DNA from: an uncultured Candidatus Rokubacteria bacterium
Lineage (GTDB): Bacteria > Methylomirabilota > Methylomirabilia > Rokubacteriales > DASRDR01
Length of the DNA stretch: 64,000 nt
Assembly: GCA_963826115.1 (NCBI GenBank)
Contig: CAWGVS010000005.1
Coordinates: 64,001-128,000, forward strand
Direction: 5' to 3'
Below, one piece after another: positions 15,051 through 60,100 of this stretch. The position numbers were made by a program, and so were the translations under genes. Under the pieces are notes generated by a model that was given only the letters and a program-made list of their open reading frames with translations, was not told the origin of the DNA and did not search any database. Every line of letters begins with the position of its first letter. The first letter of the stretch is position 1.

Positions 15051-16388
15051 TCAGCTGGCCTCGATCCGGCTCGCGAGCCAGCGCGCGGTGCGCAGGAGGC
15101 GGGCGTCGCCGTGCCGGGTGCCGACGAGCTGGATCCCGATCGGGAGCCCGTTCGAGGCGTGCATGAGGGGGAGCGTGATCGCCGGCATGCCGGCCAGCGT
15201 CCACAGGGTGCAGAAGCTCGGGTCGCCCGTGGACTCGAGGCCGTGCGGGGCCGGGCCCGGCGCGGCCGGCGTGAGGATCGCGTCGCAGCGCTCCTGGAAG
15301 AGCTCCGCGAGCCCCTCGGCGAACGCCTCCGCGCGGCGGCGCGCCAGCTGGTAGTCGAGGGCCGTGACCTCCCGGCCGCGTCCGAGCTGGGTCCGGAGGG
15401 CCTCGGACAGGCGGTCACGCCCGACGGTCCACTCGCGGTCGAGGCTGGCCGCCATCTCGGACTCCATGATCAGGCGGTGCCACTCGAAGGCGTCGGCGGA
15501 CTGGACGAGCTCGACCTCCTCCATCCGGTCGCCGAGGAGGCCGGCGAGCTCCGCGAACGCCTCGCGCGTGTCGCCGTCGACGCGGTCCCAGCGCGCGGTC
15601 TTGATGAGGGCGAGCATCGGCGGGATCGGCGGCTCCTCGGCCCCGACGGCGCGGAGCGGCACGCGCGCCCGCGGCCGGGAATCGGGGTCGCGCTCGTCGA
15701 AGCCGATCAGCTCCTCGGTCACGAGGGCGACGTCGTCGAGCGTCCGGGCGAAGACGCCCACGGTGTCGAGGGAGCGGCAGAGCGGGAGCACGCCGTGCCG
15801 CGGGATCAGCCCGTGGGTCGGCTTGAAGCCGTAGACGCCGCAGAACGCGGCCGGCCGGATCACGGAGCCATTGGTCTGGCTGCCGAGCGCGACCGGCACC
15901 ATTCCGGCCGCCACGGCGGCCGCCGAGCCGCTCGACGAGCCGCCGGGTGTGTGGGCGGGGTTGTGGGGGTTCCGCGTCTTGCCCGGCGCGTAGGCCGCGA
16001 ACTCCGTCGTCACGGTCTTGCCCACGATCACGGCGCCCGCGGCGCGGAGCATCGACACCACGGTCGCGTCCCGGGACGGCGTCCGCCCCGCATGGAGCAC
16101 CGACCCGTTCTCGGTCGGCATGTCGGCGGTGTCGATGATGTCCTTCACCCCGACCGGCACGCCGTGGAGCGGCCCGAGCGGACGGCCCGACAACCGGTAC
16201 TCGTCGGCCGCGGCCGCCTGCGCCCGCGCGAGCTCGGGGTCGAGGAACGCCCAGGCCCGGACGTCCGGGTCCACCGCCTCGATGCGGGACAGGCAGGCCT
16301 CGACCAGCTGGACGGAGCTGATGACGCCGTCCCGGACGAGGCGCGCCCCGTCGGTGGCGGAGAGCGCGTAGAGGTTGGTCAGGTCCAT
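15051..16388 (-). CDS. Amidase signature family enzyme
   Basis: GVKD, PGGSSSGSAAAV, GSQTNGSVIRPA (Lys-cisSer-Ser triad). Confidence 0.92.
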   Translation of the reverse strand: MDLTNLYALSATDGARLVRDGVISSVQLVEACLSRIEAVDPDVRAWAFLDPELARAQAAAADEYRLSGRPLGPLHGVPVGVKDIIDTADMPTENGSVLHAGRTPSRDATVVSMLRAAGAVIVGKTVTTEFAAYAPGKTRNPHNPAHTPGGSSSGSAAAVAAGMVPVALGSQTNGSVIRPAAFCGVYGFKPTHGLIPRHGVLPLCRSLDTVGVFARTLDDVALVTEELIGFDERDPDSRPRARVPLRAVGAEEPPIPPMLALIKTARWDRVDGDTREAFAELAGLLGDRMEEVELVQSADAFEWHRLIMESEMAASLDREWTVGRDRLSEALRTQLGRGREVTALDYQLARRRAEAFAEGLAELFQERCDAILTPAAPGPAPHGLESTGDPSFCTLWTLAGMPAITLPLMHASNGLPIGIQLVGTRHGDARLLRTARWLASRIEAS

Positions 16389-23712: not shown

Positions 23713-23751
23713 CGCCCGCCGCGCTATAGTGGGTCTCGAGGACCCTTGCCG

Positions 23752-24732
23752 ATGACCGGTGCCGCGCCGCACATCCTGGCGGACGACATCCAGGACGCCC
23801 GGGCCTGGCGGCGAGACACCCTGTCGCGCCGGGACTGGCTGGTCGAGGTCCCGCCGCGCTGCGTGGACGAGCTGGACGCCGTCGTCCGGACGCTCCGCCG
23901 CGATCCGCTCCCGACGCTCCTCCTTCACCCCGACCAGTTCGCGATGTCCGCGTGCGCCGAGCTGATGGGGACCGTGCGGACCCGTCTCCGCGACGGGATC
24001 GGGCTGGCGGTCGTGAGCCGGCTCCCCGTGGAGCGTTACGAGGCCGAGGAGCACCGCGCGCTCTGCTGGCTCCTGACCCAGCTCCTCGAGCGCCCCGTCG
24101 CCCAGGCGTGGAACGGCGCGATGCTCTACGACGTCCGCGACACCGGCCGCACGCTCGAGTACGGCGTCCGGCGGTCGATCACCAACCTGGACCTCACGTT
24201 CCACACCGACGGCCCGTGGCTCGACGTCCCGCCACACCTGGTCGGCCTCTACTGCGTGAACCCCGCGCAGGAGGGCGGCGTGAGCCGCTTCGTCAGCTTC
24301 GGCACCGTGCACAACGAGCTCCGGCGCCGCCACCCGCGCCTCCTGTCGCGGCTGTACCGGCCGTTCCCGTGGGACCGGCAGGCCGAGCACGCGCCGGGGG
24401 AGCCGAAGGCGGGCGCCCAGCCGATCTTCCAGTACGACGGCCGCGCGCTCGTCGGGCGCTTCAACGAGCGGCTGATCGAGTCGGGCGCCGAGCTGGCCGG
24501 CGCGCCGCTCGACGCGGAGGGCCGCGACGCGCTGGAGGCGATGCGCGGCGTCGTGGACTCGCCCGCCCTGTGGGTGGAGTTCACGATCGAGCGCGGGCAG
24601 ATCCAGTACCTCAACAACCGCGCGTTCGCGCACAGCCGGACCGACTTTCGCGACGCCTCCGAGCCGGAGCGGAAGCGCCACATGATCCGCGTCTGGACGC
24701 GCGAGGAGGGACGCCGCACCTTCTATCCCTGA
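23752..24732 (+). CDS. TauD/TfdA family Fe(II)/2-oxoglutarate dioxygenase
   Basis: FHTD...NN.AFAHSR..RHMIRVW; TATAGT upstream. Confidence 0.88.
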   Translation: MTGAAPHILADDIQDARAWRRDTLSRRDWLVEVPPRCVDELDAVVRTLRRDPLPTLLLHPDQFAMSACAELMGTVRTRLRDGIGLAVVSRLPVERYEAEEHRALCWLLTQLLERPVAQAWNGAMLYDVRDTGRTLEYGVRRSITNLDLTFHTDGPWLDVPPHLVGLYCVNPAQEGGVSRFVSFGTVHNELRRRHPRLLSRLYRPFPWDRQAEHAPGEPKAGAQPIFQYDGRALVGRFNERLIESGAELAGAPLDAEGRDALEAMRGVVDSPALWVEFTIERGQIQYLNNRAFAHSRTDFRDASEPERKRHMIRVWTREEGRRTFYP

Positions 24733-25341: not shown

Positions 25342-27639
25342 ATGACCCAGGGTTCATCCATCGGCCGGTCCGTCCGCCGCCTCGACGGCGGGGAGAAGGT
25401 CACCGGCCTCACGCGCTTCGCGGGCGACGTCCAGCTGCCGCGCATGGTCCACGCCCGTCTCGTCCTGAGCCCGCACGCCCACGCGCGGATCACGCGCATC
25501 GACGGCCGCGCCGCCGCGGCCCGGGCCGGCGTGCTCGGCGTCTTCGCCGCGGCCGACCTCGGTCTCGTCAACGTCGACCCGACCGCGCGGAGCAAGTCGC
25601 CGCTGGCCCTCGACCACGCGCTCTTCGTGGGACACCCCGTGGCGGCGGTCGTGGCCGAGACGGCGGCCATCGCCGAGGACGCGGCCGCCCTCGTCGAGGT
25701 CGACTACGAGCCGCTTCCGGCCGCGCTGGAGGCGCTCGCCGCGATGCGGCAGGACGCGCCGCGCGTGCGCGCCGCGGCCGCCGCGGGCGGCGAGGCGGAG
25801 CTGGCCATGCACGGCGCGGCGACCGGCGGCGAGCGGCTCCGCGAGACCGTCGGCCCGAACGTCGTGAGCACCCAGCGCTTCCACCGGGGCGACGTGGCCC
25901 GGGGCTTCGCCGAGGCCGATGTGGTCGTCGAGCGCCGCTTCGAGACGCCCATGGTGCACCAGGGCTACCTCGAGCCGCGCGCGGTCGTCGCGGACGTGGA
26001 CCCCCTCGGGGCGCTCACCGTGTGGACCGCGACCCAGGCGCTCTTCTTCACGCGATCGGAGGTCTCTGAGGTGCTCGGGCTGCCCGAGCATCAGGTGAAG
26101 GTCGTGGCGACGCCCCTCGGGGGCGGATTCGGCGCGAAGTTCGTGCTCCTCGAGCCCCTCGCCGCGGCGCTCGCGCTGCGCCTCCGCCGGCCGGTCTCGG
26201 TCGTCATGACCCGCACCGAGGAGTTCCTGTCGACGACGCCGGCCCCGCCCGCGGTGATCGAGCTCAAGGTCGGAGCGCGCCGCGACGGGACCCTCACCGC
26301 CCTCGAGGGCCGGGCGGTGTTCGACGCCGGCGCCTACGCGGGCGCGCCGCTCGGCATCGCGCTCCTCCTGATGGGCAGCTATTACCAGGTGCCGAACATC
26401 GAGCTCCGCGGCTACGAGGTGCTCACGCACAAGCCCGGTAACGGCGCGTACCGCGCGCCGGGCGCGGTGCAGGGGACCTTCGCGATCGAATCGGTCATGG
26501 ACGAGCTCGCGCGGGCGACCGGGCTCGACCCGATCGACCTCCGGCTCCTCAACGCGTCGCGGCCGGGCGACCCGATGGTGACCGGCCAGCCCTGGCCGAA
26601 GATGGGCCTCGTGGAGTGCCTGGAGCGGCTCCGCGAGGAGCGCGGCCGTCGCGCCACGCGCCGCCGCCGCCCGCGAACCGGGCGGTACCGGCGGGGATCG
26701 GGGGTCGCCGTCGGGGGCTGGATGGGCGGGGTCGAGCCCGCCAACGCCGCGTGCCGCCTGGACCGCGACGGGACGGTCAGCATCCTCGTGGGCACCGTCG
26801 ACATGAGCGGCACCAACACCGCGTTCGCCCAGATCGCCGCCGAGGCGTTCGGCATCCCGTTCGAGGACGTCCGCGTGATCAACGGCGACAGTGACACCGC
26901 GCCGTACGCGGGGGCGAGCGGCGGCAGCAAGATCACCTACACCGTGGGCCTGGCCGTGGAGCGCGCCGCCCGCGAGGCCCGGCGGCAGCTCCTCGCCATC
27001 GCCGCCGACCGGCTCGAGGCCTCGATGGAGGACCTCGAGATCGTCGACCGCGCGGTGCGCGTCCGCGGCGTCCCCGCGCGCGCCGTCGCCCTCGGCGACC
27101 TCGCCAAGGCGAGCATGCAGTTCGGCGCGAAGTACGAGCCCGTGTACGGGCGGGGCGGGAGCGCGACGGTCGCGCGCTCGCCGGCGTTCGCCGCCCACTG
27201 GAGCGAGGTCGAGGTGGACACGGAGACCGGCGCGGTCCGGGTGACCGGCCACCTGGCCGTGCAGGACGTCGGGCGGGCCATCAACCCGGCGGCCGTCGAG
27301 GGACAGATCCAGGGCGGCGTGGTGCAGGGGATCGGCTGGGCGCTCCTCGAGCGGATGCCGTACGACGAGGCGGGCCAGCTCCTCGCGGCGACGCTGATGG
27401 ACTACGCCTTGCCCCAGAGCGACCAGGTGCCGAGCGTGGAGTCCGTCCTGCTCGAGGTGCATTCCGACCACGGCCCCTTCGGCGCCAAGGGCGTGGGCGA
27501 GCCGCCGATCGTCGGCGTGCCCGCCGCGATCGCGAACGCGGTCGCCGCCGCGACCGGGCATCGGTTCACGTCGCTCCCGATCACGGCGCACGAGGTCGTC
27601 GCGGCACTGGACGGCCACGCCGGCGGCCGGGCGGGCTGA
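25342..27639 (+). CDS. Xanthine dehydrogenase/CoxL-family molybdopterin-binding subunit
   Basis: HQGYLEP, GGGFGAK, AYRAPG, VEGQIQGG, GAKGVGE. Confidence 0.92.
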   Translation: MTQGSSIGRSVRRLDGGEKVTGLTRFAGDVQLPRMVHARLVLSPHAHARITRIDGRAAAARAGVLGVFAAADLGLVNVDPTARSKSPLALDHALFVGHPVAAVVAETAAIAEDAAALVEVDYEPLPAALEALAAMRQDAPRVRAAAAAGGEAELAMHGAATGGERLRETVGPNVVSTQRFHRGDVARGFAEADVVVERRFETPMVHQGYLEPRAVVADVDPLGALTVWTATQALFFTRSEVSEVLGLPEHQVKVVATPLGGGFGAKFVLLEPLAAALALRLRRPVSVVMTRTEEFLSTTPAPPAVIELKVGARRDGTLTALEGRAVFDAGAYAGAPLGIALLLMGSYYQVPNIELRGYEVLTHKPGNGAYRAPGAVQGTFAIESVMDELARATGLDPIDLRLLNASRPGDPMVTGQPWPKMGLVECLERLREERGRRATRRRRPRTGRYRRGSGVAVGGWMGGVEPANAACRLDRDGTVSILVGTVDMSGTNTAFAQIAAEAFGIPFEDVRVINGDSDTAPYAGASGGSKITYTVGLAVERAAREARRQLLAIAADRLEASMEDLEIVDRAVRVRGVPARAVALGDLAKASMQFGAKYEPVYGRGGSATVARSPAFAAHWSEVEVDTETGAVRVTGHLAVQDVGRAINPAAVEGQIQGGVVQGIGWALLERMPYDEAGQLLAATLMDYALPQSDQVPSVESVLLEVHSDHGPFGAKGVGEPPIVGVPAAIANAVAAATGHRFTSLPITAHEVVAALDGHAGGRAG

Positions 27640-28895
27640 TGGCGGCGACGCGCGAAGCGGCGGCGGCCTCGCCGGAGCTTCGCCAGCGGGTTCTGGGGCG
27701 GATCGACGACGACGAGGTCGTCCGGCTCGCCCAGGACCTGATCCGGATCCCGTCGTTCACGACCGAGGAGACCCCCTGCGCGGAGTGGCTGGCGAACTAC
27801 CTCGCCGACCAGGGCCTCGAGGTGGAGCTCCAGGAGATCGAGCCGGGGCGGAAGCAGGCCGTGGCCCGCCTCCGCGGCACGGGCGGCGGCCGGTCGATCA
27901 TGCTCAACGGACACATCGACATCGATCCGCTCGCGAGCGGCTGGACCCGCGATCCCTTCGAGCCCTGGATCGCCGAGGGTCGCCTGTACGGCCACGGGAT
28001 CTTCAACATGAAGGCGGGCGTGACCGCGAACATCATGGCCGCGCTCGCGCTCCGCCGGGCGGGCGCGCCGCTGCGGGGCGACGTCGTGGTGGCGTGCGTG
28101 GCCGCGGAGCTCAACAGCGGGATCGGCACGATCCACGCGATCCGGCACGGCGGGCGGACGGACATGGCGGTCGTCTCCGAGCCGTACGGCGCCGACACGA
28201 TCCTCACGAAGCACACCGGGACCATGGACGTCGTGGTCCACACGCTCGGGCGGGCAACGCACATCAGCAAGAAGGAGCAGGGCGTGGACGCCATCGGGCT
28301 GATGATCCGGGCCATCGGCGCGCTGAACGCCATGCGCTTCACCCACGTCCACGACCCGGACCTGCCGGGCCTCCCGCGCCTGAACGTCGGCTCCATCGTC
28401 GGCGGCCGGGGCCGGAGCCACGAGCTGCGCGGCGCCTACACGGTCAGCGACCACTGCACGGCGTACGTCAACGTGCGCTTCAACGCGAGCCAGACCGGCG
28501 AGACCATCCTCGCCGACTTCCGCCGGACGCTCGACGGGCTCGCGGCCGAGGACCCGACCTTCCGGTACGAGATCGAGTTCCCGCCCGCGCTCGAGCGCGG
28601 GCTCGGGCGGCTCGCGAAGGCCGCGGTCGACGTGCCGAAGACCGAGCCCGTCGTGCAGATGGTGCGGTGCAGCCTCCACGCCCTGACCGGGCGCGAGCCC
28701 GAGCACTTCGGGGTCCGGCTGCCCCAGAGCTACGCCGGGAACGACACGACGCACCTCTGGGCCGCGGGCATCCCGTGCTGTCTCTACGGGCCCGGCGGCG
28801 GGTATACGGACTACCATGACGTGCACGTCACCCTCGCGGACCTGTTCCTGTGCACGAGGGTCCTGGCCCTGACCGCGCTGGAAGCGGCCCTGTGA
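27639..28895 (+). CDS. M20/ArgE-DapE family deacylase
   Basis: LNGHIDI, LYGHG..NMKAG, AAE, VSEP, GRATH, YGPG; acidic metal ligands partly substituted. Confidence 0.85.
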   Translation: MAATREAAAASPELRQRVLGRIDDDEVVRLAQDLIRIPSFTTEETPCAEWLANYLADQGLEVELQEIEPGRKQAVARLRGTGGGRSIMLNGHIDIDPLASGWTRDPFEPWIAEGRLYGHGIFNMKAGVTANIMAALALRRAGAPLRGDVVVACVAAELNSGIGTIHAIRHGGRTDMAVVSEPYGADTILTKHTGTMDVVVHTLGRATHISKKEQGVDAIGLMIRAIGALNAMRFTHVHDPDLPGLPRLNVGSIVGGRGRSHELRGAYTVSDHCTAYVNVRFNASQTGETILADFRRTLDGLAAEDPTFRYEIEFPPALERGLGRLAKAAVDVPKTEPVVQMVRCSLHALTGREPEHFGVRLPQSYAGNDTTHLWAAGIPCCLYGPGGGYTDYHDVHVTLADLFLCTRVLALTALEAAL

Positions 28896-30046
28896 CGGGC
28901 GCGGCCGACGTGCGCTACGTCGACCCCGCGACCGGCCGCACGTATCCCCTGGCCGAGCCGCGATGGTGCGGTGACGACGGCCACTACCTGAACCTCGAGC
29001 CCGGGCCGGGGCTCGGGCGGGACGACATCGACCCGGGCCAGGACTCGGTCTGGCGCTACGCGAAGGCGCTCCTCGTCGACCCGGGCGACGCCGTCAGCAT
29101 GGGCGAGGGCTGGACGCCGCTGGTCGCGGGCACGTGGGCCGGCGCCCCCGTCCTGTTCAAGCTCGAGTTCCTGATGCCGACGGGGTCGTTCAAGGACCGC
29201 GGCATGACGGTGATGGTGAGCTACCTGAAGAGCCGCGGCGTCGACCGCGTGCTCGAGGACTCGTCGGGGAACGCCGGCGCGTCGCTCTCCGCCTACGCGG
29301 CGCGGAGCGGCCTGTCGTGCCGCATCCTGGTGCCCGAGACGGCGTCCTACCCGAAGATCGCCCAGATCGCCGCGTGCGGCGCCGACGTCGTCACGATCCG
29401 GGGCTCGCGCCAGGACGTCGCCGAGGCCGCGCTCCGGCAGAGCGCGGACATCTTCTACGCGAGCCACAACTGGCAGCCGACGTTCGTGGAGGGCGTGAAG
29501 ACGCTCGCGTACGAGCTGTGGGAGCAGCTCGCCTTCAACGCGCCCGACAACGTCGTCGTGCCCCTCGGCTACGGGAGCAACGTCCTCGGCTGCGAGCGCG
29601 GCTTCGACGAGCTCCTCCGGCGTGGCGAGATCGTCCGGCGGCCGCGGCTCTTCGGCGTCCAGGCGGCGAACTGCGCCCCCTACCACGCGGCCTTCCGGGC
29701 GGGGGTCGAGCACCTCGTGCCCACGACGATCGCGCCGACCGTCGCCGAGGGCATCGCCTCGGCCAAGCCCACGCGGGTGGCCGAGGTGCTCCGCGCCGTG
29801 CGGGAGAGCGGGGGCAGCGTGGTGACGGTCGACGAAGCGGAGATCGTGGAGGCGCTCGGGACCCTGGCGCGCAAGGGGCTCTACGTGGAGCCCACGTCCG
29901 CGGCGGCCGCGGCGGGGCTCGGCCGGCTCCTCGAGACGGGCGCCATCCGGCCCGACGAGACGACCGTGCTCGTCCTGACCGGATCGGGCCTCAAGGCGTC
30001 CGCGAGCATCGGCGAGCTCCTGAAGCTCGGCGCGCGGGGCGACTGA
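28892..30046 (+). CDS. thrC: Threonine synthase-like PLP enzyme
   Basis: GEGWTP, PTGSFKDRG, SSGNAG, VEPTSA, LTGSGLK. Confidence 0.85.
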   Translation: MTGAADVRYVDPATGRTYPLAEPRWCGDDGHYLNLEPGPGLGRDDIDPGQDSVWRYAKALLVDPGDAVSMGEGWTPLVAGTWAGAPVLFKLEFLMPTGSFKDRGMTVMVSYLKSRGVDRVLEDSSGNAGASLSAYAARSGLSCRILVPETASYPKIAQIAACGADVVTIRGSRQDVAEAALRQSADIFYASHNWQPTFVEGVKTLAYELWEQLAFNAPDNVVVPLGYGSNVLGCERGFDELLRRGEIVRRPRLFGVQAANCAPYHAAFRAGVEHLVPTTIAPTVAEGIASAKPTRVAEVLRAVRESGGSVVTVDEAEIVEALGTLARKGLYVEPTSAAAAAGLGRLLETGAIRPDETTVLVLTGSGLKASASIGELLKLGARGD

Positions 30047-30050
30047 GCCC

Positions 30051-30374
30051 ATGCGGCTGACGCCGACCGAGCTCGACCGCCTGGCGATCTTCACCGCCGC
30101 CGAGCTCGCCCGCCGCCGGCGCGCGAAGGGCTGGCGGCTCACGTATCCGGAGGCGCTGGCGCTCATCTGCGACGAGATGCACGAGGCCGCGCGCGGGGGC
30201 GCGTCCTACGCGGAGGTCGTCCAGACGGCCCGCGGCGTCCTCACCGAGGACGACGTGCTGGACGGGGTCGCCGATCTGGTCGGCACCGTGAAGCTGGAGT
30301 GCCTGTTCGGAGACGGCACCCGAGTCCTCCACGTGGAGCGGCCGATCGGGCCGGGCCGGCGGCCGACGGCATGA
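30051..30374 (+). CDS. ureA: Urease gamma subunit (divergent)
   Basis: MRLTPTELDRL, LTYPEA, FGDGT. Confidence 0.88.
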   Translation: MRLTPTELDRLAIFTAAELARRRRAKGWRLTYPEALALICDEMHEAARGGASYAEVVQTARGVLTEDDVLDGVADLVGTVKLECLFGDGTRVLHVERPIGPGRRPTA

Positions 30375-30769
30375 GGCCGGGGGAGGTCCTGTTCGCCGAG
30401 GGGACGATCGTCCTGAACGCCGGCCGGCCCACCGTCGAGGTGAGCGTGACCAACACCTCGGCGCACACGATCTTCATCAGCTCCCACTTCCCGTTCTTCG
30501 AGGTGAACCGCCGGCTCGAGCTCGACCGCGCCCGGGCCTGGGGCATGCACCTCGACATCCCTGCCGGCGACGCGGAGCGCTGGCGCCCGGGCGAGACCCG
30601 GATCGTGCGGCTCGTCGCCTTCGGGGGCGCGCGCGCGGTGCGCGGGTTCAACGGGCTCACGGACGGCCCGGCCACGCCCGAGCGCCTGGCCGGGGGCCTC
30701 GCGCGGGCCCGCGCGGGCGGGTACGCGCACCGGGATGCGGGCGCCCCGGAGGCCTCCCGTGGCCGGTGA
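30371..30769 (+). CDS. ureB: Urease beta subunit (divergent)
   Basis: MRPGE, LNAGR, SHFPFFEVN, LDIPAG, GFNGL. Confidence 0.88.
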   Translation: MRPGEVLFAEGTIVLNAGRPTVEVSVTNTSAHTIFISSHFPFFEVNRRLELDRARAWGMHLDIPAGDAERWRPGETRIVRLVAFGGARAVRGFNGLTDGPATPERLAGGLARARAGGYAHRDAGAPEASRGR

Positions 30770-32429
30770 GCTGACGCGCCCCGAGTACTCGGGGCGCTAC
30801 GGGCCCACCACCGGCGACCGCGTGCGGCTGGGGGACACCGACCTCCTCCTCCGGATCGACCGCGACGAGTCGAGCTACGGCGACGAGGTGCTGCGCGGCT
30901 GGGCCAAGACGTTGCGCACCGGGATCATGACCAACGCCGAGCTGCCGGCGGCGAGCGAGCTCGACCTCATCGTCACGAACGTGATCGTGATGGACCCCGT
31001 CCTCGGCATCTTCAAGGGGAACATCGGGGTGAAGGACGGCGTGATCGTCGGCGTGGGGCGCGCCGGCAACCCGGACGTCGTGGACAACCCGGACCTCCTG
31101 ATCGGCTCCAACACGGTGCCGGTGTACGGCCAGGGCTACATCGCGACGCCCGGCGGCATCGACACCCACGTCCACCTGGTCCAGCCGCGCCTCATCCCGG
31201 CCGCGCTGGCCGCGGGCATGACGACCCTGATCACCGGCGGCCTCAACGAGAACCCGGCCTTCAACCTGGACCACATGTTCCTTGCCTTCGAGGGGTTCCC
31301 GGTGAACCTCGGCGTGCTCGGCCGCGCCGCCAGCTACGTGGCCGCCCCGCTCGAGCGGCAGATCGAGTCGGGCGCGTGCGGCCTCAAGGTGCACGAGGAC
31401 TACGCGGGGTACCCGAGCATCGTCGACGCGGCGCTGACCGTCGCCGACGCCTACGACGTCCAGATCGCGATGCACACCGACGGCCTCAACGAGTCGTGCG
31501 AGCTCCACGAGACCGTCGCCGCGATCGCGGGGCGGAGCATCCACGCCTACCACGTGGAGGGGATCGGCGGCGGCCACTCGCCCGACATCCTGGCGATCGC
31601 GGGGATCGGCCACGTCATCGGGTCCTCGACGACGCCGACGGTGCCCTACGGCCGGAACGTCGCGGCCGAGCACCACGCCATGATGTGGTCGGTCCACGGC
31701 ATGAACCCGCGCGTCCCGAGCGACCACGTGATGATCGCCGACCGGATCCGCGAGTCCACGATGCGCGCGGAGAGCGTGCTCCACGAGCTCGGAGCGATCA
31801 GCATCATCAACTCCGACTCCCAGGGGATGGGGCGCATCGGCGAGGTGATCCGCCGGACCTGGCAGCTCGCCCACCAGATGAAGCGCATGCGGGGCGAGCG
31901 CCCGCCGCACGACAACCCGCGGATCCTCCAGTACCTCGCGAAGTACACGATCAACCCCGCGCGGGCCCACGGCGTGGACCGCTGGGTGGGCTCGCTCGAG
32001 GCGGGCAAGAGCGCGGACATCGTGCTGTGGCGTCCGGAGTTCTTCGGCGTGAAGCCGGAGGTCGTGATCAAGGGCGGCTATCCGGCGTGGGGCGCGCTCG
32101 GCGAGGGCAACGCGTCCGTCTCCCAGACCGAGCCCCAGATCTACGGCGCGCACTGGGGCGGCAGCGGGCTCGCGGCCGCGAGCCTCAGCATCGACTTCGT
32201 CTCGGCCGCCGCGGCGGCCGGCGACTTCCGGCGCCGGCTCGGAACCCGACGGCGGGCGATCCCCGTGGTCGGCATCCGGCAGATCGGCAAGCGCGACATG
32301 CTCTACAACCAGGCGAACCCCCGGATCGAGATCGACCCCGGCTCGGCCGACATCCTGATCGACGGGAAGCCGCTCCCGCCCTTGCCCGACGACGACCTCC
32401 CGCTGAACCGCCGCTATTTCCTGACGTAG
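30759..32429 (+). CDS. ureC: Urease alpha subunit-like amidohydrolase (divergent)
   Basis: YGPTTGDRVRLGDT, GIDTHVH, GLKVHED, MHTD, YHVEG, SDSQGMGR, KYTINPA. Confidence 0.9.
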   Translation: MAGELTRPEYSGRYGPTTGDRVRLGDTDLLLRIDRDESSYGDEVLRGWAKTLRTGIMTNAELPAASELDLIVTNVIVMDPVLGIFKGNIGVKDGVIVGVGRAGNPDVVDNPDLLIGSNTVPVYGQGYIATPGGIDTHVHLVQPRLIPAALAAGMTTLITGGLNENPAFNLDHMFLAFEGFPVNLGVLGRAASYVAAPLERQIESGACGLKVHEDYAGYPSIVDAALTVADAYDVQIAMHTDGLNESCELHETVAAIAGRSIHAYHVEGIGGGHSPDILAIAGIGHVIGSSTTPTVPYGRNVAAEHHAMMWSVHGMNPRVPSDHVMIADRIRESTMRAESVLHELGAISIINSDSQGMGRIGEVIRRTWQLAHQMKRMRGERPPHDNPRILQYLAKYTINPARAHGVDRWVGSLEAGKSADIVLWRPEFFGVKPEVVIKGGYPAWGALGEGNASVSQTEPQIYGAHWGGSGLAAASLSIDFVSAAAAAGDFRRRLGTRRRAIPVVGIRQIGKRDMLYNQANPRIEIDPGSADILIDGKPLPPLPDDDLPLNRRYFLT

Positions 32430-44644: not shown

Positions 44645-45781
44645 TCAGTAGGTCTGCCGCCCGATGAAGGCCCACTTCCCGTCCTTCACCTGGAGGTACA
44701 CCTGGTCCTTCGCCTCGCGCTCGCGCTGGTCGTTGAACGAGAAGGTGCCGGTGACGCCGCCGAACGTCTTGGTGGCCGCGATGGCGTCGCGGATGGCGTC
44801 GCGGTCGGTCCCGGCCTTCTCGATCGCGCCCAGGATGATGCGCGCGGCGTCGTACGTGGTGGCGTGGTACGGCTCGGGCTTCTCGCCCGGGTGGAGCTTC
44901 TGGTACATGGTCACGAAGTTCCTGACGACGGGCGCCGGGTCGTCGGCGTTGAACTCGGTGTTCACCGCGAGCCCCTCGGAGTTGCCCTTGCCGGCGAGCT
45001 CGATGAACTTGTCCTCGTAGAGAGTGCCGGTGCCGACCAGCGGCGCGGTGATCCCGAGGTTCCGCGCCTGGAGCGTGAGCAGCGCGCCGGTCGTGTAGTA
45101 GGTCAGGATGGCGAGCGCCTCGGGGTTGGCCGCCTTGACCTTGGTGAGCTGGGCCTTGAAGTCGGTGTCCTTGTCGTTGACGACCTCGAGGGCCGCCACG
45201 CGGGCGCCAAGCTTCTCGAGCTCCTTCACGAAGTAGTCCTTCGTCTGGATGCCCCAGTCGTTCTGGACGTACACGACGCCCACGTTCTTCTTGCCGAGCT
45301 TCTTGACCGTGTACTGGGCGAGGTCGGGCACGTAGACGGAGATCGGCGACCACATCCGGAACATGTACTTGCCGCCCTGCTTGGTGAGCTCCGTGTGGGA
45401 CGCCGACGGCGTGATCGTGGCCAGGCGCGCCCGCGTGTAGATCGGGATGGCCGCGAAGCAGGCCGACGAGGAGTAGTGGCCGAGGACCGCCAGGATGGCG
45501 TCGTCCGAGGCGAACTTCTGGGCGACGGTGGCCGCGTCCTTCGGGTCGCCCTTGTCGTCCTCGACCCGGATGACGACCTTCTTGCCCTTGATCCCGCCCT
45601 TGGCGTTGACCTCGTCCGCGGCGAGCTGGGCGCCCTCCGAGAACTGCTTGCCGATCTGGGCGAGGTTGCCGGTCATGGGGGCCGCGACGCCGATGACGAT
45701 GTCCTGGGCGGCGGCGGGACTCGCCGGCAGGGCGGCCGCCACGGCCAGCAGGAGGATTCCGAGGACACGCAGCATGCTCAT
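44645..45781 (-). CDS. Branched-chain amino acid ABC substrate-binding protein (LivJ/K-like)
   Basis: Signal peptide, PMTG, GGIKG, DDKGDP, NDWG, GVTGTFSF. Confidence 0.9.
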   Translation of the reverse strand: MSMLRVLGILLLAVAAALPASPAAAQDIVIGVAAPMTGNLAQIGKQFSEGAQLAADEVNAKGGIKGKKVVIRVEDDKGDPKDAATVAQKFASDDAILAVLGHYSSSACFAAIPIYTRARLATITPSASHTELTKQGGKYMFRMWSPISVYVPDLAQYTVKKLGKKNVGVVYVQNDWGIQTKDYFVKELEKLGARVAALEVVNDKDTDFKAQLTKVKAANPEALAILTYYTTGALLTLQARNLGITAPLVGTGTLYEDKFIELAGKGNSEGLAVNTEFNADDPAPVVRNFVTMYQKLHPGEKPEPYHATTYDAARIILGAIEKAGTDRDAIRDAIAATKTFGGVTGTFSFNDQREREAKDQVYLQVKDGKWAFIGRQTY

Positions 45782-45791
45782 GTGAGTCTCC

Positions 45792-47096
45792 TCACGCGGT
45801 TCGGGTTCGGGGACGGGGGAGCAGGGTGTCTCGATCGAGGACCCGCCCTCGCACGACCACCGTCCGGATGGCCCGGGCGTCGGCCAGGCGGCGGAGCGGG
45901 TTGCCGGAGACGAGGACGAGGTCGGCCTGGGCGCCCGGCGCAATCCGGCCAAGGTCGGACCGTCCGAGCGTGTCGGCGGCCGCCGCCGTGGCCGCGCGCA
46001 GGACGGCGGCGTTCGACAGCCCGGCCGCGCGGAGCCGCAGGAGCTCCTCGTGGTAGAGGAACCCGGCGCACGGCTTCAGCGCGTCCGTGCCGACGAGGAC
46101 CCGGCCGCCGAGCCGCGCGTAGTCCCGGATGAAGCGCTGGTAGCGGGCGCGGCCGCGCGCCCACTCGGCGAAGTCTCGCGCCGTCCACGCGGCGCTGAAG
46201 AAGCGCTGGCCGAGCCAGCCCAGGAGGTCCCGCCGGGCGTCGGCCGGCAGGCGCCGCGTGTCGCCGTCCCGCCGGACCCGGGCGGTGTACCGGCCCAGGA
46301 TCCCGTCCATCCCGGCGAGCGTCGGCACGAGGTACGTCTCGTACTTCAGCATCTGGTGGCCGAGGCGCTCGAGCCGCCCGCGGTCGGCCCGGGCCCAGAG
46401 GCGCCCGAGCATGGCGGAGCGCTCGGGGATCGACCGGTACCGGAGGAGCGCGGTCTCCGGAAGCGCGCCGGGCGCCTCGGGGAGCCGCGAGGTGTTCTCC
46501 AGGCCGTCGAAGCCGAGGGACACCGCCTCCCGGGCGGTGAGGCTCCACGTCTGCCCCGTCACGCCGATCCCGTGCCGGTGCGCCTCGTCGACGGCGGCGC
46601 GCGCGACCTCGAGCGCCGGCTTCTGCGTGAGGATGATCCCGTCGACCCGGTACTCCGCGCGGAGCCGCTGGACGGCCAGGCGCGCCTCCGCCGCCGAGTA
46701 GAGCGGCCACGACATCGCCGGGTAATCGGGCGAGACCCCGTCGAGGAGCGGGCCGAGCGAGAAGACCCGGGGACCGGGCGCGCGGGCGCTCTCGATGGCC
46801 TCGCGCAGCGCGAGCACGGCGTCGGGATCGTTCCCGGCGAAGCGGACCGTCGTCACGCCGTTGGCGAGGTAGAGGCGCGCCCCCAGCTCGGAGACCAGGT
46901 GCGAGTGCATGTCGACGTAGCCCGGGAGGAGCGTGCCGCCCCGGCCGTCGATCACCCGGGCCTCGCGCGGGGTCGTCAGCTCGCCCACGACCACCTCGCG
47001 GATCCGCGCCCCTTCCACGATCACCGACGCGCGCTCGATCGCGTTTTCCGACACGCCGTCGAAGACGCGCACGTCCCGGACGACCAACAGGCTCAC
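45792..47096 (-). CDS. Amidohydrolase family protein (partly degenerate metal site)
   Basis: LLPGYVDMHSH, ANGVTTVR, VGTD, GRIAPG..ADLVLV.GNP. Confidence 0.85.
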   Translation of the reverse strand: MSLLVVRDVRVFDGVSENAIERASVIVEGARIREVVVGELTTPREARVIDGRGGTLLPGYVDMHSHLVSELGARLYLANGVTTVRFAGNDPDAVLALREAIESARAPGPRVFSLGPLLDGVSPDYPAMSWPLYSAAEARLAVQRLRAEYRVDGIILTQKPALEVARAAVDEAHRHGIGVTGQTWSLTAREAVSLGFDGLENTSRLPEAPGALPETALLRYRSIPERSAMLGRLWARADRGRLERLGHQMLKYETYLVPTLAGMDGILGRYTARVRRDGDTRRLPADARRDLLGWLGQRFFSAAWTARDFAEWARGRARYQRFIRDYARLGGRVLVGTDALKPCAGFLYHEELLRLRAAGLSNAAVLRAATAAAADTLGRSDLGRIAPGAQADLVLVSGNPLRRLADARAIRTVVVRGRVLDRDTLLPRPRTRTA

Positions 47097-47189
47097 GCGT
47101 CTCGACTCATGCCGGACGCCCTCGGGGGGGCTGCGCGGGATCAGCCGGGGCGCGCTCGCCGGCCAAGCGTCTGCGCGAGCGGGAGACCG

Positions 47190-48107
47190 TCACCAGGGGG
47201 CGGTCCATCCGGCGGCGGCGAGCGTCTCGCGAGGAATGATGAGGCGCGCGGCCATGACGGGCCGCGGCGACGTCCCGATGCGGAGCTCGCCCACGATCGA
47301 GAGGAGCATGTACGCCTCCTCGGGATCCATGCCGGCGCCCTGGGCGACGACGTCGATGGCCGCCCGCGTCGCGTCCTCGGTGGCCTCCTCGACGCTCGGG
47401 CCGAAGCCGAGCACCTGGACGGTCCCGTCCACCTCGACGATCGGCCGCGCGATCGCCAGCCGCTTGCGGAGGGTGATGCGCGCCCGCACGGTCGACGTGC
47501 ACTCGACGCCGGTGCCGGTGACGATGCCGTCGCTGATCGCCGCGTGCGGGTCGGCGAAGAAGACGAGGGCGCCCGGTACCATGACCGGGAGGTAGACGCG
47601 GCTCCCTGCCTTCACGTCCTTCTGGTCGAAGTCGCCGCCGTAGGGCCCGGCGTAGGACGGCTTGTAGCCTTCCGGCGGCATGGTCGATACCGTGCCCAAG
47701 TTGGGGTTCAGCGGGATCGGGATCCGCCCGCCGAACCAGGCCCGCCCGTCGCGCACCGGGCAGGCGATCGCCTTCGGCTCCCCGTACTCCTTCCGGAGCA
47801 CGCCGAAGTCCCGCAGGATCGCGGTGATGCCGTCCGTGTGCGGCGTGATCTCCAGGAGATCGATCGCCACGGCGTCGCCGGGCTCGGCCCCGCGGACGCG
47901 CACCGGCCCGGCGACGGGCGCCAGCGGGTGGCCGTCGCACTCGGGGGTGAACGGCGTGGGCACGTCGCGGATGTCGCGGACGTCCGCGAAGGCGCCGCGG
48001 ACCACGAGGGTCACCTCCTCGCCCGAGTCGATCGTCAGGGCGGGGGGCGTGTCGACGTTGACCGAGAAGAGGTACCAGGTCCTGGGCTCGGCCGCGCCGC
48101 CGGTCAT
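47190..48107 (-). CDS. Acetamidase/formamidase family protein
   Basis: GPVRVRGAEPGD, GPYGGDFD, LPVMVPGAL, DPHAAISDG...GVE. Confidence 0.85.
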   Translation of the reverse strand: MTGGAAEPRTWYLFSVNVDTPPALTIDSGEEVTLVVRGAFADVRDIRDVPTPFTPECDGHPLAPVAGPVRVRGAEPGDAVAIDLLEITPHTDGITAILRDFGVLRKEYGEPKAIACPVRDGRAWFGGRIPIPLNPNLGTVSTMPPEGYKPSYAGPYGGDFDQKDVKAGSRVYLPVMVPGALVFFADPHAAISDGIVTGTGVECTSTVRARITLRKRLAIARPIVEVDGTVQVLGFGPSVEEATEDATRAAIDVVAQGAGMDPEEAYMLLSIVGELRIGTSPRPVMAARLIIPRETLAAAGWTAPW

Positions 48108-49114
48108 CGCGACAGCCCTCCCGTCTCCCGGAGGCGCCCGAACACCGCCGGGTTGACCACGCGGTCCGGCCACTCGCCGCGGAGCACTGCGGCCGCCTGC
48201 TTGCTCGCCACGCGCGCGGACAGGGCGCCCGACTCGGTGGACTCGCCCCCGGCGTGCGGCGTCGCGATGACGTTCGGCATGCGGAGGAGCGGGTTACCCG
48301 GGTCGGTCGGCTCCTTCTCGAAGACGTCCAGGCCCGCGCCCGCGATCCAGCCCTCCTGGAGGGCGCGGGTGAGCGCGGCCTCGTCGATGACCCCGCCGCG
48401 GCAGCAGTTGACGAGGTACGCCGTCCGCTTCATGGCCCGGAGCTCGCGCTCCCCCAGGAGGTGCCGGGTCGCCCCGTTCAGCGGGACCTGGACGGACACC
48501 CAGTCCGACCTCGCGAGCAGCGCGTGGAGATCGCCGACCATCTCGACGCCGAGCTCCCGCGGCACGTGCTCCTCCACGTGGGGGTCGTAGGCCACGACGC
48601 GCAGCCCGAACGGCTGGAGTCGCCGGGCCAGCGCCTCGCCGATCGCGCCCAGGCCGATGAGCCCCGCGGTCTCCCCGTCGAGCGTCGTGATCGGCCGGCC
48701 GGCCGGGCGGTCCCACACGCCCTGCCGCATCGCCCGGTCGTACTGCACGATCTTCCGGTTGAGGGCCAGGATCAGGGCGGCGGCGTGGTTCGCGACCTCG
48801 AGGTGGCAGATGTGCGCCGCGTTCGTCACCAGGATGCCCGCGCGGGTGGCGGCGTCCAGGTCGACGCCCTCGAACCCGTGGCCGAACCCGCAGATCACGC
48901 GGGCCCGCTCCATCGCCGCGACCATCGCGGCGTCGACCCGGAAGCCGCCGATCATCACGACGTCGGCGCCGCGGACCGCCTCCCGCGCCTCGGCCGGCGT
49001 CCGGCACTCGACGGAGACGATCTCGACGTCGATGCCGTCGAAGGCGGGCGGCCAGACCTCGTACGGGAACATCTTCGACGAGGGGTGGACCAGCACGACG
49101 CGAGGCTTGGTCAC
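48104..49114 (-). CDS. D-isomer 2-hydroxyacid dehydrogenase (SerA/CtBP-like)
   Basis: GLIGLGAIG, NCCRGG, LDVFEKEP, TPHAG. Confidence 0.9.
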   Translation of the reverse strand: MTKPRVVLVHPSSKMFPYEVWPPAFDGIDVEIVSVECRTPAEAREAVRGADVVMIGGFRVDAAMVAAMERARVICGFGHGFEGVDLDAATRAGILVTNAAHICHLEVANHAAALILALNRKIVQYDRAMRQGVWDRPAGRPITTLDGETAGLIGLGAIGEALARRLQPFGLRVVAYDPHVEEHVPRELGVEMVGDLHALLARSDWVSVQVPLNGATRHLLGERELRAMKRTAYLVNCCRGGVIDEAALTRALQEGWIAGAGLDVFEKEPTDPGNPLLRMPNVIATPHAGGESTESGALSARVASKQAAAVLRGEWPDRVVNPAVFGRLRETGGLSR

Positions 49115-57138: not shown

Positions 57139-60100
57139 TCAGGCGGGTCTCCGGATCCGCCGACCGTGGCGGGCCGACGCGGCGACCAGGTCGCGCACCT
57201 CGCCGAGGAGCGTCTCGCGGCTCAGCGCGCCCTTCTGGAGGACGCGCGCCACGTACCCGTTGAGGCGCTCGTGGTCCTCGGAGGAGAGGTCCTTCGCCGT
57301 GATGACGACGATCGGTACGGAGCGCCACGCGGGGTTCTCCCGGGCGGCGGCGACGAAGTCGAATCCGTCCATCTCGGGCATCATGAGATCGAGGAGAACC
57401 ACGCCGGGCACGCTCTCGCGGAGCCGGTCCAGTGCCGCGCGGCCGTTATCAGCCTCGATGACGGCGTAGCCTTCCCGCTCCAGCATCCGCCGCGCCAGCT
57501 CGCGGAAGTCCGGATCGTCGTCGACGACGAGGACAGGGAGGTCCTGGCGGTAGCGCCCGAGCACGGCCACGAGACGCTCGCGATCGATCGGCTTGGTCAG
57601 GTAGTCGGCGGCCCCGAGGGTATACCCGAGATTCCGGTCGTCGAGCATGGTCAGCATCACCACGGGGATGTCGGCCAGCTCCGCGTTCGCCTTCAGCGCC
57701 GCGAGCACGGACCAGCCGTCCATGCCGGGCATGAGGACGTCGAGCGTGATGACGTCTGGTCGGAGCTCCCGGGCGCGCCGCAGGCCCTCCTCTCCGCTCG
57801 ACGCCGTGACGACGCGGAACCCTTCCTTGCCGAGGAATCGCGACATCAGGTCGCGTACCGCCCCGTCGTCGTCGACCACCAGCACGGTGTTCGCGCCGGC
57901 CGATGCCGGCTCGCTCTTCGCGGGCGCCGGCGGCTCGCGCTTGGCGTCCGTCACCTCCGCCGGCAGCCGGATCGTGAACGTGCTGCCGCGTCCGGCCTCA
58001 CTCACCACCGTGATGTCTCCGCCCATCATCCGGCAGAGGCGGCGCGAGAGCGCGAGCCCGAGCCCCGTTCCCCCGTAACGCCGGGTGGTCGAGGCATCCG
58101 CCTGTCCGAACTCCTGGAAGAGCCGGCCGATCTGCTCCGACGTCATGCCGATGCCGGTATCGCCTACCGCGAAGACGATCGCGGCGCCGTCCTGCGCCGC
58201 GTCCCGGCTGACGGCCACCGACACGACGCCGCGCTCGGTGAACTTGCACGCGTTCGACAGGAGGTTGAAGAGCGCCTGTCGGAGCTTGGTGAGGTCCGCG
58301 CGCATGGCGCCGACATCCGGGGGGCAATGGACCTCGACCCGGTTCGCGTTCTTCTGGGCGAGAGGCTCCAGCACCGCGGCGACGTCGCGCACGAGCGGCG
58401 CGACCTCGAAGGACTCCAGATAGAGCTCCATCTTTCCCGCTTCGATCTTCGACAGGTCGAGCACGGCGTTGATGAGCTCGAGGAGGTGCTTGCCCGCGGC
58501 GTGGATGCGCTGGAGGTCCGGGAGGAAGCCCTCGGCGTGCTGGTCCTGCGCTTCCTCCTGCAGCATCTCGCTGTAGCCGATGATGGCGTTCAGAGGCGTG
58601 CGGAGCTCGTGGGACATGTTGGCCAGGAACTCCGACTTGTGGCGGCTGGCGACCTCCAGCTCCCGGCTCTTTGCCTCGATCTCCCGGAAGAGCCGCGCAT
58701 TCTGGATGGCCAGGGCGGACTGTCCCGCGAAGGTTTGGAGGAGATTCACGACCTCGTCCGGGTACAGACCAACCGCCTGCCGCCACACGGTCAGCACGCC
58801 CAGGATCCGGTTCTCCGACAGGAGCGGGACCGCCAGGACCGAGCGGTAGCCCCGCTGGAGCAGGACGGTCCGGAGCCGGGTCGCGCTGTACGAGCGCTCG
58901 TCGGTGATGTCCGGAAGCTGGACGGGCTCGCGCCGGAGCGCGGCCTGGCCCGTCGCACCCTCTCCGAGACGGAGCGGCTCTGCGCGTAGCACCTCCAGCA
59001 GCTCGTCGGGCATCTGGTGGCTGGCCTGGAGCTCGAAAGCCTGCGTCGCCTCGTCGTACTCGTAGACCACGCCGCCACCCGCGCCCGCGAGCTGGACCGC
59101 GCGGCTCACGATGGTCGTCAGGACGGTGGGCAGATCCAGGGTGGAGCTGACCGTGCGGCTGACGGCGCTCAGCGCCTGCAGCTCCTCGACCGACCTGGTG
59201 AGCTCCCCGGTTCGCGCCTGCAGCTCCGTCAGGAGGCGGACGTTCTCGATGGCGATGACGGCCTGGTCGGCGAAGGTGGTCACCAGCTCGATCTGCTTGT
59301 CGGTGAACGGCCGTACCTCCGACCGCCACATTGCGAACACGCCGATGAGCACCTGCTCCCGGAGCATCGGCACGCCGAGAAGGGTCCGGATGTTCCCCAT
59401 GCCAGGCGCCTCGCTATTCTTGTGGCGCCAGTCCGCGTCCGCCTGAGCGTCGGGGATCTGGGCCGTCCGTCGATCCAGAGCGACCCGGCCGACGACCGAG
59501 CCATCGCCGGCGCGAATGGGGTGATCGCGGGTGAAGTCTCTGAATGCGGAAGGCGCGTTGTAGTCCGCGGCCAGATCGAACAGCTGGCCGCTCGATCGGA
59601 AGATGAACCCTTGCTGCGCGCCGCACAGCCGCGTCGCGTTCTCGACCAAGGTCGCCAGGACCGGCTGGAGGTCGAACGTCGACCGGCTGATGACCTTCAG
59701 AACCTCGCTGGTGGCGGTCTGCTGCTCGAGGGCCTCGGTGAGATCGCGGTTGCGCGCGTCCAATTCCTTGAACAGGCGCACGTTCTCGATGGCGATGACC
59801 GCCTGATCCGCGAACGTCTCCAAGAGCTTGATCTGCTTGTCCGAGAACGGGCGGACTTCCATGCGGCGGATCAGGATCGCGCCGAGCGCCTGGCCCTCGC
59901 GCAGAAGGGGCGTGGCCAGCGTGGTGCGGTGGCCCGTGAGCCGCTGGGTCTCCCGGCCCACGGGGTACTCGGCCTCCGATTCGGCCATGAGGTCATGGAC
60001 GTGAATGGTTCTTCGGTCCACGACGGCACGACCCGTCACCCAGCCGCGGCCGATGGGCCTCGCGGGAGGACTGGGGATTGGCCCGAACGAGGCGGCCGGC

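Follow-up and report, generated by a model that had tools for sequence, protein, structure and literature searches.

The 64,000-nt stretch of DNA analyzed in this study (the window; positions 64,001 to 128,000 of contig CAWGVS010000005.1, assembly GCA_963826115.1), which derives from an uncultured Candidatus Rokubacteria bacterium, harbors a translationally coupled three-gene operon, ureA'-ureB'-ureC', at positions 30051-32429 (+). As judged by the comparisons detailed below, this locus is a member of a widespread, uncharacterized, conserved, and mobile clade of soil-bacterial urease-fold enzymes. The first gene, ureA' (30051..30374, +), is predicted to encode a gamma-like subunit of 107 amino acids (aa) (Pfam Urease_gamma, 9.4e-33) and starts 4 nt past the stop codon of an upstream ThrC-like gene. 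The beta-like subunit, of 132 aa, is specified by ureB' (30371..30769, +; Urease_beta, 1.5e-32), whose ATG start codon at 30371 overlaps the ureA' stop codon in the sequence ATGA; the ureB' open reading frame (ORF) listed from position 30299 represents an upstream extension, homology among relatives beginning at the ATG at 30371. The alpha-like catalytic subunit is encoded by ureC' (30759..32429, +; Urease_alpha and Amidohydro_1), the ORF of which opens at an ATG at 30735 (564 aa from there). The likely start of ureC' is the GTG codon at 30759, which is preceded by GGAGG at positions 30748-30752 and gives a product of 556 aa, as in nearly all homologs.

The Pfam families PF00449, PF01979 (Amidohydro_1; 5.7e-45), PF00547, and PF00699 were all matched by the operon products. 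The UreC' protein scores 687.5 bits with the NCBIfam subfamily model NF009686, whose cut-off is 354, and 624.1 bits with the equivalog model TIGR01792, which falls short of the 680 required. An AF2 model of UreC' (predicted local distance difference test score, 83.2; predicted template modeling score, 0.90) was matched by Foldseek to 39 urease chains with template modeling (TM) scores of 0.91 to 0.93; sequence identity to solved urease chains amounts to 41 to 44%, and no structure is closer than 44%. Alignment of UreC' to Helicobacter pylori UreB (PDB 1e9z) by HMMER (E value of 1e-154) bears out the original prediction, which had been made from the sequence of this stretch, that all of the metal ligands are present: the six residues H145 and H147 (HxH), K218 (LKVHED), H247 (MHTD), H273 (YHVEG), and D361 (SDSQ) are intact, as are the catalytic residues H220, D222, H321 (located on the flap), and R337 and, additionally, Gly278. 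The codons of this metal-ligand and catalytic set, which were checked individually, span positions 31167..31817 (+). In H. pylori numbering, H145, H147, K218, H220, D222, and H247 correspond to H136, H138, K219, H221, D223, and H248, and H273, G278, H321, R337, and D361 correspond to H274, G279, H322, R338, and D362, respectively; the four catalytic residues H220, D222, H321, and R337 are equivalent to His222, Asp224, flap His323, and Arg339 of Sporosarcina pasteurii urease. All ten ligand and catalytic positions are invariant in alignment A1, and G278 is retained in at least 90% of its rows.

The surroundings of this site differ from those of canonical ureases. The canonical segment GGGTGPADGTNATTITPG is replaced in UreC' by GGLNENPA, which is 10 residues shorter in the HMMER alignment to H. 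pylori UreB and confirms the predicted loss of approximately 10 aa; the shortened beta2-alpha2 loop, GGLNENPAFN (31236..31265, +), occupies the place of canonical GGGTGPADGTNATTITPGRRN. As a result of this 10-residue deletion, the loop which bears Ala170 in S. pasteurii consists of 7 residues in UreC' versus 17 in canonical enzymes. Counting residues identifies the Ala of NATT as H. pylori Ala169 (S. pasteurii Ala170); it falls within the deleted stretch and is without an unambiguous UreC' counterpart, being opposite a gap according to HMMER and opposite Glu172 according to MAFFT. The flap tip reads WSVHG (31686..31700, +) in place of MVCHH, such that Met is replaced by Trp, the conserved Cys by Val, and the second His by Gly, with catalytic His321 being kept. 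Gly364 (31824..31826, +) stands at the place of S. pasteurii Ala366, converting SDSQAM to SDSQGM, and further motif changes convert HEDW to HEDY and FGGGKT to RGWAKT. The replacement of MVCHH with loss of the Cys, that of DSQAM by DSQGM, and that of GGGK by GWAK had likewise been anticipated and were found in the alignment to H. pylori UreB. Both the short loop and the Ala366-to-Gly change are fixed in the clade.

The structural role of these elements is apparent from the solved urea complex of S. pasteurii urease, in which His222 holds the urea oxygen, Ala170 and Ala366 hold the nitrogen bound to Ni(2) through their backbone carbonyls, and Gly280 and Ala366 hold the distal nitrogen, with the flap being locked by Asp224-His323-Arg339 (PMC7433671). 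By alignment, the metal-1 (carbonyl) side of the UreC' pocket and the flap His are conserved, and the metal-2 (amide nitrogen) side is changed. The rebuilt elements are exactly those which serve as hydrogen bond acceptors for the urea nitrogen at Ni(2) in that complex (PMC7433671). The fold, ligand, and motif comparisons support the original proposal of a urease-fold enzyme in which the metal site is intact and the substrate pocket is rebuilt.

A second set of replacements concerns the surface through which canonical urease receives its nickel. Binding of UreD in H. pylori proceeds via Glu177 of UreA and Tyr543 of UreB, and the E177A and Y543A substitutions abolish both complex formation and activation; the nickel tunnel exits UreB at Asp336, the D336A substitution again abolishing activation, and the tunnel gate comprises Phe334, Arg338, and the 277-GAGGGHAP-284 loop of UreB (Nim et al. 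2023, PMC10121161). Arg72 of UreB' (30584..30586, +) is located at the place of Glu177, the canonical RFEPG reading RWRPG, and the Glu177 equivalent is kept in none of the 92 clade UreB' sequences (Arg in 74; Ala, Leu, Gln, Gly, His, or Pro in the rest) and in 9/9 non-clade loci. The switch II residues which form the gate and exit of the nickel tunnel read MIAD (31731..31742, +) where FA(D/E)S is canonical, placing Met333 and Ala335 of UreC' at the positions of H. pylori Phe334 and Asp336, respectively. The Phe334 equivalent is Met in all 128 clade sequences, and the acidic residue at position 336 is replaced by Ala in 120 of the 128, with an Asp one position later. Ala538 (32346..32348, +) stands at the place of Tyr543, where Val (66 sequences), Ala (60), and Ile (1) are found among the 128 clade members and Tyr never occurs, as opposed to 8/10 canonical rows with Tyr. 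The equivalent of H. pylori UreB Ala278 is Ile in 125/128 clade sequences, and those of Arg338 and Arg340 are kept. The clade-wide replacement of Glu177 and Tyr543, which dock UreD, and of Asp336 and Phe334, which belong to the nickel tunnel and its gate, is reported here as a new observation.

The genes for the delivery machinery are likewise missing. The host genome (6.24 Mb; 99.09% complete and 5.34% contaminated, with the window being situated on a 2.1-Mb contig) was searched in its entirety, and family searches found no UreG, UreD, UreF, or UreE (UreE_C). The absence of ureD, ureE, ureF, and ureG which had been remarked upon for the window was confirmed by tblastn and extends to the whole genome, in which no canonical ureC was found either. 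Since tblastn detects no second ureA, ureB, or ureC, the present locus is the only urease-family locus of this genome and is not a paralog within it, as the original prediction had labeled it. No HypB (best match, 22.5 against 121 bits) and no UrtA (103 against 492.75 bits) scored over its cut-off in the genome, and urea carboxylase was represented by partial matches of the biotin carboxylase type only. Homologs of the NicO-family Ni/Co transporter are present, the family being ambiguous between import and efflux.

To the same end, 11 UreD, UreE, UreF, and UreG proteins of Escherichia coli O157, Bacillus sp. S3, and the Aminobacter plasmid pSR3 were compared by tblastn with the window and 115 urease loci. 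No match was obtained in the window or in any of the 105 clade loci, whose flanks total approximately 749 kb (at least 5 kb on a side in 49 loci and at least 3 kb in 67), whereas the same queries matched 9 of the 10 non-clade loci (L102 to L106, L108, L110, L112, and L114); no match was found within 6 kb of the intermediate-type Streptomyces locus L107. Across 22 carrier genomes, UreG exceeded its cut-off in 8 (the genome under study, 0/1; the remaining carriers, 0/5 and 8/16), and it was absent from 5/5 carriers of genus g1 in the phylum sample. Where it does occur, as in G007, G036, G091, and G122, UreG lies beside a ureC of approximately 50% identity together with ureD, ureE, and ureF, and the cassette is carried by a different contig. 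UreG was found in none of 10 further genomes of family f1, for which the cassette is the only urease in 5/11 (including G000), and 4/4 carriers of family f2 also hold a canonical urease. Because 4/9 carriers of the phylum sample keep a canonical urease with UreG, it is suggested that the two enzymes are not redundant. Judged at the level of both genes and residues, the enzyme of this clade appears to have dispensed with the nickel-delivery machine.

Relatives of UreC' are numerous. A word-index search retrieved over 120 clusters with 79 to 91% identity, almost all of 555 to 556 aa, and every source-named cluster is called 'urease subunit alpha'. Median pairwise identity within the clade (n = 128) is 85% (minimum of 69%), compared with a median of 47% to 10 canonical sequences, and no fewer than 322 of 564 alignment positions are at least 97% conserved in the clade. 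The pocket changes are not attributable to chance, because they are fixed over the 128 clade sequences and 62 alignment positions split the clade from canonical ureases. Identity to the query is bimodal among 151 genomes of the phylum of the window (a tally which includes the unpublished G063, not a carrier): 9 genomes reach at least 77% and all other matches at most 56%, with none falling in between. In the phylum of G004, which is not that of the window, the clade occurs in G004 alone among 251 genomes, all other matches being at most 56% identical. None of 167 plasmid-borne ureC matches reached 60% identity, with at most 49% among the 40 listed.

A 43-row phylogeny (IQ-TREE quick search, LG+G4, midpoint root) placed 19/19 clade rows on one branch with a Shimodaira-Hasegawa-like approximate likelihood ratio test support of 100. 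The nearest neighbors are two short-loop representatives, P0121 and P0123 (support of 99), followed by intermediate-loop groups, among them a Streptomyces plasmid copy; no verified urease is found in the tree half to which the clade belongs. The other half comprises the plasmid ure(AB)C-ureGDF type, the canonical copies native to the phylum, and the enzymes of E. coli O157 and Bacillus, such that the clade, under this rooting, lies outside the verified ureases rather than nesting among them, as an ordinary urease had been expected to do; this outcome favors the original prediction. The FA(D/E)S and Tyr features are missing throughout the accessory-free half. In the other half, Phe-Ala is found at positions 334-335 in every row and an acidic residue at 336 in all but P0126 (Gln), and among its 12 rows Tyr543 is present in 6 and Phe in 4, with neither in P0130 and P0142.

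Two further observations relate to this tree. The half without the tunnel/gate motif FA(D/E)S and without a counterpart of Tyr543 (P0121-P0144 and L107) consists of Actinomycetota-labeled intermediate-loop groups, the Streptomyces plasmid copy, and the short-loop clade, which raises the prospect that the chaperone-free state may be ancient and far wider than the clade. The plasmid type of the other half is represented by Aminobacter pSR3 (L103:5337-10416) and a conjugative IncN plasmid of Klebsiella michiganensis (L104:5308-10384), which carry ure(AB)-ureC-ureG-ureD-ureF clusters flanked by genes for branched-chain-type ATP-binding cassette transporters and, in pSR3, also by an ANTAR regulator; their alpha subunits possess a loop which is 3 residues shorter, a flap without Cys (MVSHH/MTSHH), and SDSQGM.

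The ratio of nonsynonymous to synonymous substitution rates (dN/dS) was 0.10 to 0.32 in 9/9 pairs, and no stop codon was found in any full-length copy examined, from which the clade enzyme is judged to be intact and under purifying selection. By record title, carriers include Rokubacteria/Methylomirabilota, Nitrospiraceae, Chloroflexota, Dehalococcoidia, Planctomycetota, Burkholderiales, and Gammaproteobacteria. Synonymous divergence (dS) is just 0.42 to 0.83 even between copies titled as different phyla; this low divergence, the mixed range of carriers, and a G+C fraction of 0.55 to 0.72 among clade loci point to horizontal spread of the cassette among soil and groundwater bacteria. Some of the phylum labels in record titles are unreliable, as the label of locus L014 is contradicted by the genome sample: the ureC' on this contig (L014 / G091, equal to G415), whose title reads 'Candidatus Acidoferrum sp.', is identical to the copy in a genome placed in the phylum of the window.

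Comparison with known systems helps to separate what is shared from what is peculiar to the clade. The canonical UreABC enzymes of Klebsiella aerogenes and S. pasteurii and the UreAB enzyme of H. pylori share with it the fold, the three subunits, the six ligands including the carbamylated Lys, and the His/Asp/His/Arg set; they possess a long Ala170 loop, Ala366, the MVCHH flap, the UreD-docking and tunnel residues, and ureDEFG and fall in the other tree half, in all of which the clade differs. The iron urease UreA2B2 of Helicobacter mustelae, a proven urease which works without accessory proteins (PMC6737895), is a particularly informative case. In our alignment its sequence (PDB 3qga; 42% identical to the UreC' model and with a different subunit fusion) resembles the clade in that Glu177 is replaced by Gly, Asp336 by Gln, and Tyr543 by Phe and in that YH(I/V)EG stands in place of FHTEG, whereas, unlike the clade, it retains the long loop, HEDW, MTCHH, and SDSQAM. 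Because UreA2B2 changes three of the four docking and tunnel residues examined and nonetheless keeps a canonical pocket, neither the loss of chaperones nor even a change of metal would require the pocket rebuilding observed in the clade.

The accessory-less ure(AB)C enzymes of Streptomyces and other Actinomycetota, which are of the intermediate-loop type, are found in the same tree half as the clade, have lost Phe334, the acidic tunnel residue, and Tyr543, and include members with HTDG, xVHG-type flaps, and SDSxGM. They are distinguished by a loop which is approximately 4 to 6, rather than 10, residues shorter than the canonical one, by the fusion of the gamma and beta subunits, and, for L107 (Streptomyces), by a beta part which keeps the Glu177 equivalent; their identity to the query is 40 to 54%. 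This cluster type is recognized in genomic papers and, in the portions of these sources available, is not functionally separated from other ureases (PMC5489568, PMC2492869, and PMC12342949). A search of the main texts of the literature returned no paper that deals with the present clade or with what accessory-less ure(AB)C clusters do. Dihydropyrimidinase, hydantoinase, allantoinase, and dihydroorotase share a binuclear site with a carboxylated lysine and the same ligand pattern and represent the next-best structural matches (TM scores of 0.45 to 0.52), but they are single-subunit enzymes of 13 to 18% identity which do not possess a urease flap. The metal sites of such binuclear carboxylated-lysine amidohydrolases are not known to need dedicated GTPase chaperones in order to fill.

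The genomic surroundings of the cassette vary, with ureide or agmatine breakdown being a frequent theme. All three genes were found together in 20/21 genome loci, and no other conserved partner gene was found across contexts (counts are of loci, many of them near-duplicates). In the window, the cassette is preceded by co-directional genes encoding the large subunit of a molybdopterin hydroxylase (25342-27639, +), an M20 deacylase of the ArgE/DapE type (27639-28895, +), and a ThrC-like pyridoxal phosphate-dependent enzyme (28850..30046, +; PALP, 5.6e-76), the last of which scores under the cut-off of every threonine synthase model of NCBIfam. The hydroxylase and the deacylase are placed outside the conserved unit because either may be absent among relatives. 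The hydroxylase occurs in 8 loci of this context type and the ThrC-like gene in 7 loci and the window; the latter gene lies directly upstream of ureA' in L001-L004, L006, L009, and L010 and in none of the loci that are more distant, and it was rejected as a conserved partner, being limited to close relatives of the window. The molybdopterin large subunit, which is of the xanthine dehydrogenase family, has no adjoining gene for an iron-sulfur or a flavin adenine dinucleotide subunit and is flanked by a DoxX protein and the M20 deacylase, and a TauD-family dioxygenase is encoded at 23746-24732.

A second, ureide-type context is characterized by an AtzE-like amidase (13 loci), an SBP_bac_8 transporter (11 loci), an M20 'allantoate amidohydrolase/carbamoylase' (14 loci; NF006769, 477.5 against 452 bits), and a hydantoinase/dihydropyrimidinase-like protein which scores under the cut-offs (12 loci). 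In six loci of this type, a COG0523 GTPase (CobW-like; cobW and CobW_C) is encoded a few genes downstream of the cassette, as at L080:6742-8163, where it adjoins the hydantoinase-like gene; the same family is present in L019, L031, L033, L034, and L095. A third context type comprises Amidohydro_2, DUF488 (13 loci), the cassette, and then a PutA-like gene, and SBP_bac_5 transporters occur in 13 loci of other contexts. In L011, L066, and L072 an agmatinase gene (TIGR01230, 194 against 174 bits) is situated directly downstream of the cassette. No urea transporter was found among the neighbor families annotated by Pfam and NCBIfam, the accessory tblastn having included no urea transporter query. 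These contexts are nitrogen compound hydrolysis islands and fit a urea-like compound produced in ureide or guanidino breakdown and urea itself equally.

We propose that ureA'B'C' specifies a functional three-subunit metallo-amidohydrolase of the urease fold, a member of the distinct mobile clade described above. Its binuclear, carbamyl-lysine-bridged metal center would be assembled without the UreD/UreF/UreG nickel-delivery machine, because the genome lacks the corresponding genes and the enzyme lacks the residues for docking and for the tunnel; the site would presumably self-assemble, and the metal it takes up may be one other than chaperoned nickel. Catalysis would be expected to follow the urease scheme, whereby His220 polarizes the substrate carbonyl at metal 1 and the bridging hydroxide attacks, assisted by flap His321, which would be held by Asp222 and Arg337. 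Since the metal-2 side, which in urease accommodates the second urea nitrogen, is rebuilt through the shortening of the Ala170 loop from 17 to 7 residues and the Ala366-to-Gly change, we suggest that a non-urea substrate and/or another metal is involved. On the substrate side, the preferred compound would be a urea-like small amide other than plain urea; candidates are substituted ureas, ureides, and related carbamoyl compounds that arise in ureide or guanidino catabolism. The label of an ordinary urease is at any rate unsafe, because the nickel-delivery genes and docking residues have been lost and half of the urea pocket is rebuilt. That the operon encodes a chaperone-independent urease-fold amidohydrolase which differs from canonical urease in substrate and/or metal is a reading we regard as evenly poised between right and wrong. 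The broader suggestion that this clade, and perhaps the whole accessory-free tree half, contains the first urease-fold enzymes with a non-urea physiological substrate and a self-assembling, non-chaperoned metal center is advanced more tentatively, as somewhat short of an even chance.

Several observations weigh against a changed substrate. Beyond the ligands, His220, Asp222, His321, Arg337, and Gly278 are kept along with both small subunits, as a real urease predicts; the Ala170 and Ala366 contacts are made by backbone carbonyls, which a shorter loop could still provide; and HMMER and MAFFT disagree over gap placement in that loop. Of the substitutions cited in the original prediction, all of which are real, SDSQGM, YHVEG, and loss of the flap Cys are not diagnostic on their own, as they are shared by plasmid ureases located beside ureG, ureD, and ureF. 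Several of the neighboring genes furthermore make or lead to urea (agmatinase in 3 loci; hydantoinase-like and M20 carbamoylase-type proteins in 12 to 14), and the many different neighborhoods fit a common end product such as urea better than one exotic substrate. These points feed a strong rival explanation, namely, that the operon encodes a true urease which converts urea to ammonia and carbamate and is self-activating without UreDEFG in the manner of the Bacillus subtilis and H. mustelae UreA2B2 enzymes, the loop deletion and flap changes having adapted the site to unassisted entry of metal or to another metal (Fe or Mn) rather than to another substrate. Such an enzyme would retain the full catalytic set and the three-subunit architecture, and accessory-free ureases have precedent (PMC6737895). 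It would also suit the agmatinase which exceeds the TIGR01230 cut-off directly downstream in L011, L066, and L072, the ureide-type hydrolases of 12 to 14 loci, the many varied contexts, as expected for a common metabolite, and the window's family, where another urease is wanting (UreG in 0/10 further family-f1 genomes; the cassette alone in 5/11). Set against this, UreA2B2 gained accessory independence and an iron site with the loop, HEDW, CHH, and SDSQAM untouched; no UrtA exceeds its cut-off in the genome, and no annotated urea transporter appears among the neighbor families, although the accessory tblastn queried none; a canonical urease is also present in all four family-f2 carriers; and the TIGR01792 score falls under the cut-off. 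On balance, we consider a self-activating urease somewhat less likely than an altered substrate and/or metal.

A further rival explanation is that the enzyme is a nickel urease matured by an unrecognized or unlinked chaperone, for example, a COG0523 (CobW-like) GTPase acting in place of UreG, UreF, and UreD. The GTPase genes a few positions downstream of the cassette in six loci of one context type, together with the NicO-family Ni/Co transporter homologs of the genome, would accord with this scenario; however, such a GTPase is found in only 6/105 loci, where the adjoining hydantoinase-like metalloenzyme could just as well be its client, no partner gene is conserved with the cassette across contexts, and the NicO family includes efflux proteins, so that its presence says little. 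We consider this explanation improbable. Least credible, and in our estimation very improbable indeed, is that the locus represents a decaying or non-catalytic urease relic: many of the 50%-identity cluster representatives of the family do lack some metal ligands, yet UreC' keeps all of them, dN/dS is 0.10 to 0.32, the full-length copies examined are free of stop codons, and the three genes are always together and are tightly coupled in the operon of the window. A chaperone-independent amidohydrolase with an altered substrate and/or metal remains the preferred reading.

Genomic studies of soil, groundwater, and nitrifiers rely on ureC to mark ureolytic potential. The expectation that annotation pipelines would label this enzyme as urease is borne out by the names given to clade members by sources ('urease subunit alpha') and by NF009686, which UreC' passes, in contrast to TIGR01792. 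If the clade does not hydrolyze urea, nitrogen cycle inferences for Rokubacteria/Methylomirabilota and others would be off, and, were the broader suggestion above correct, a sizeable share of the 'ureC' genes in soil metagenomes would not report ureolysis. For enzymology, either outcome would be of consequence, representing the first substrate change within the urease fold or a natural urease needing no nickel chaperones, the latter being attractive for heterologous use. That the accessory genes and the experimentally defined UreD-docking residues have been lost together furthermore provides a clean evolutionary confirmation of the 2023 activation complex model.

A number of additional observations were made in the course of this analysis. 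One or more metal ligands (HxH, Lys, His, or Asp) are replaced in many 50%-identity cluster representatives of full-length urease alpha homologs (P0135, P0150, P0151, P0153, P0159, P0161, P0163, P0168, P0179, P0199, P0218, and P0241), which suggests that these homologs may constitute non-catalytic 'pseudo-urease' lineages. The window harbors a second amide hydrolysis cluster at 44645-48173 (-), composed of genes encoding a Peripla_BP_6 protein (44645-45952), an Amidohydro_1 protein (45792-47096), and a member of the acetamidase/formamidase family (47190-48173). An amidase signature gene (15051-16388), a DUF885 gene, and a gene for a fused tripartite ATP-independent periplasmic transporter are located further upstream in the window. 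Finally, an ORF of at least 2282 aa near the window end (57139-63987, -) encodes a hybrid sensor kinase with approximately 10 GAF domains, a HisKA/HATPase module, and two receiver domains.

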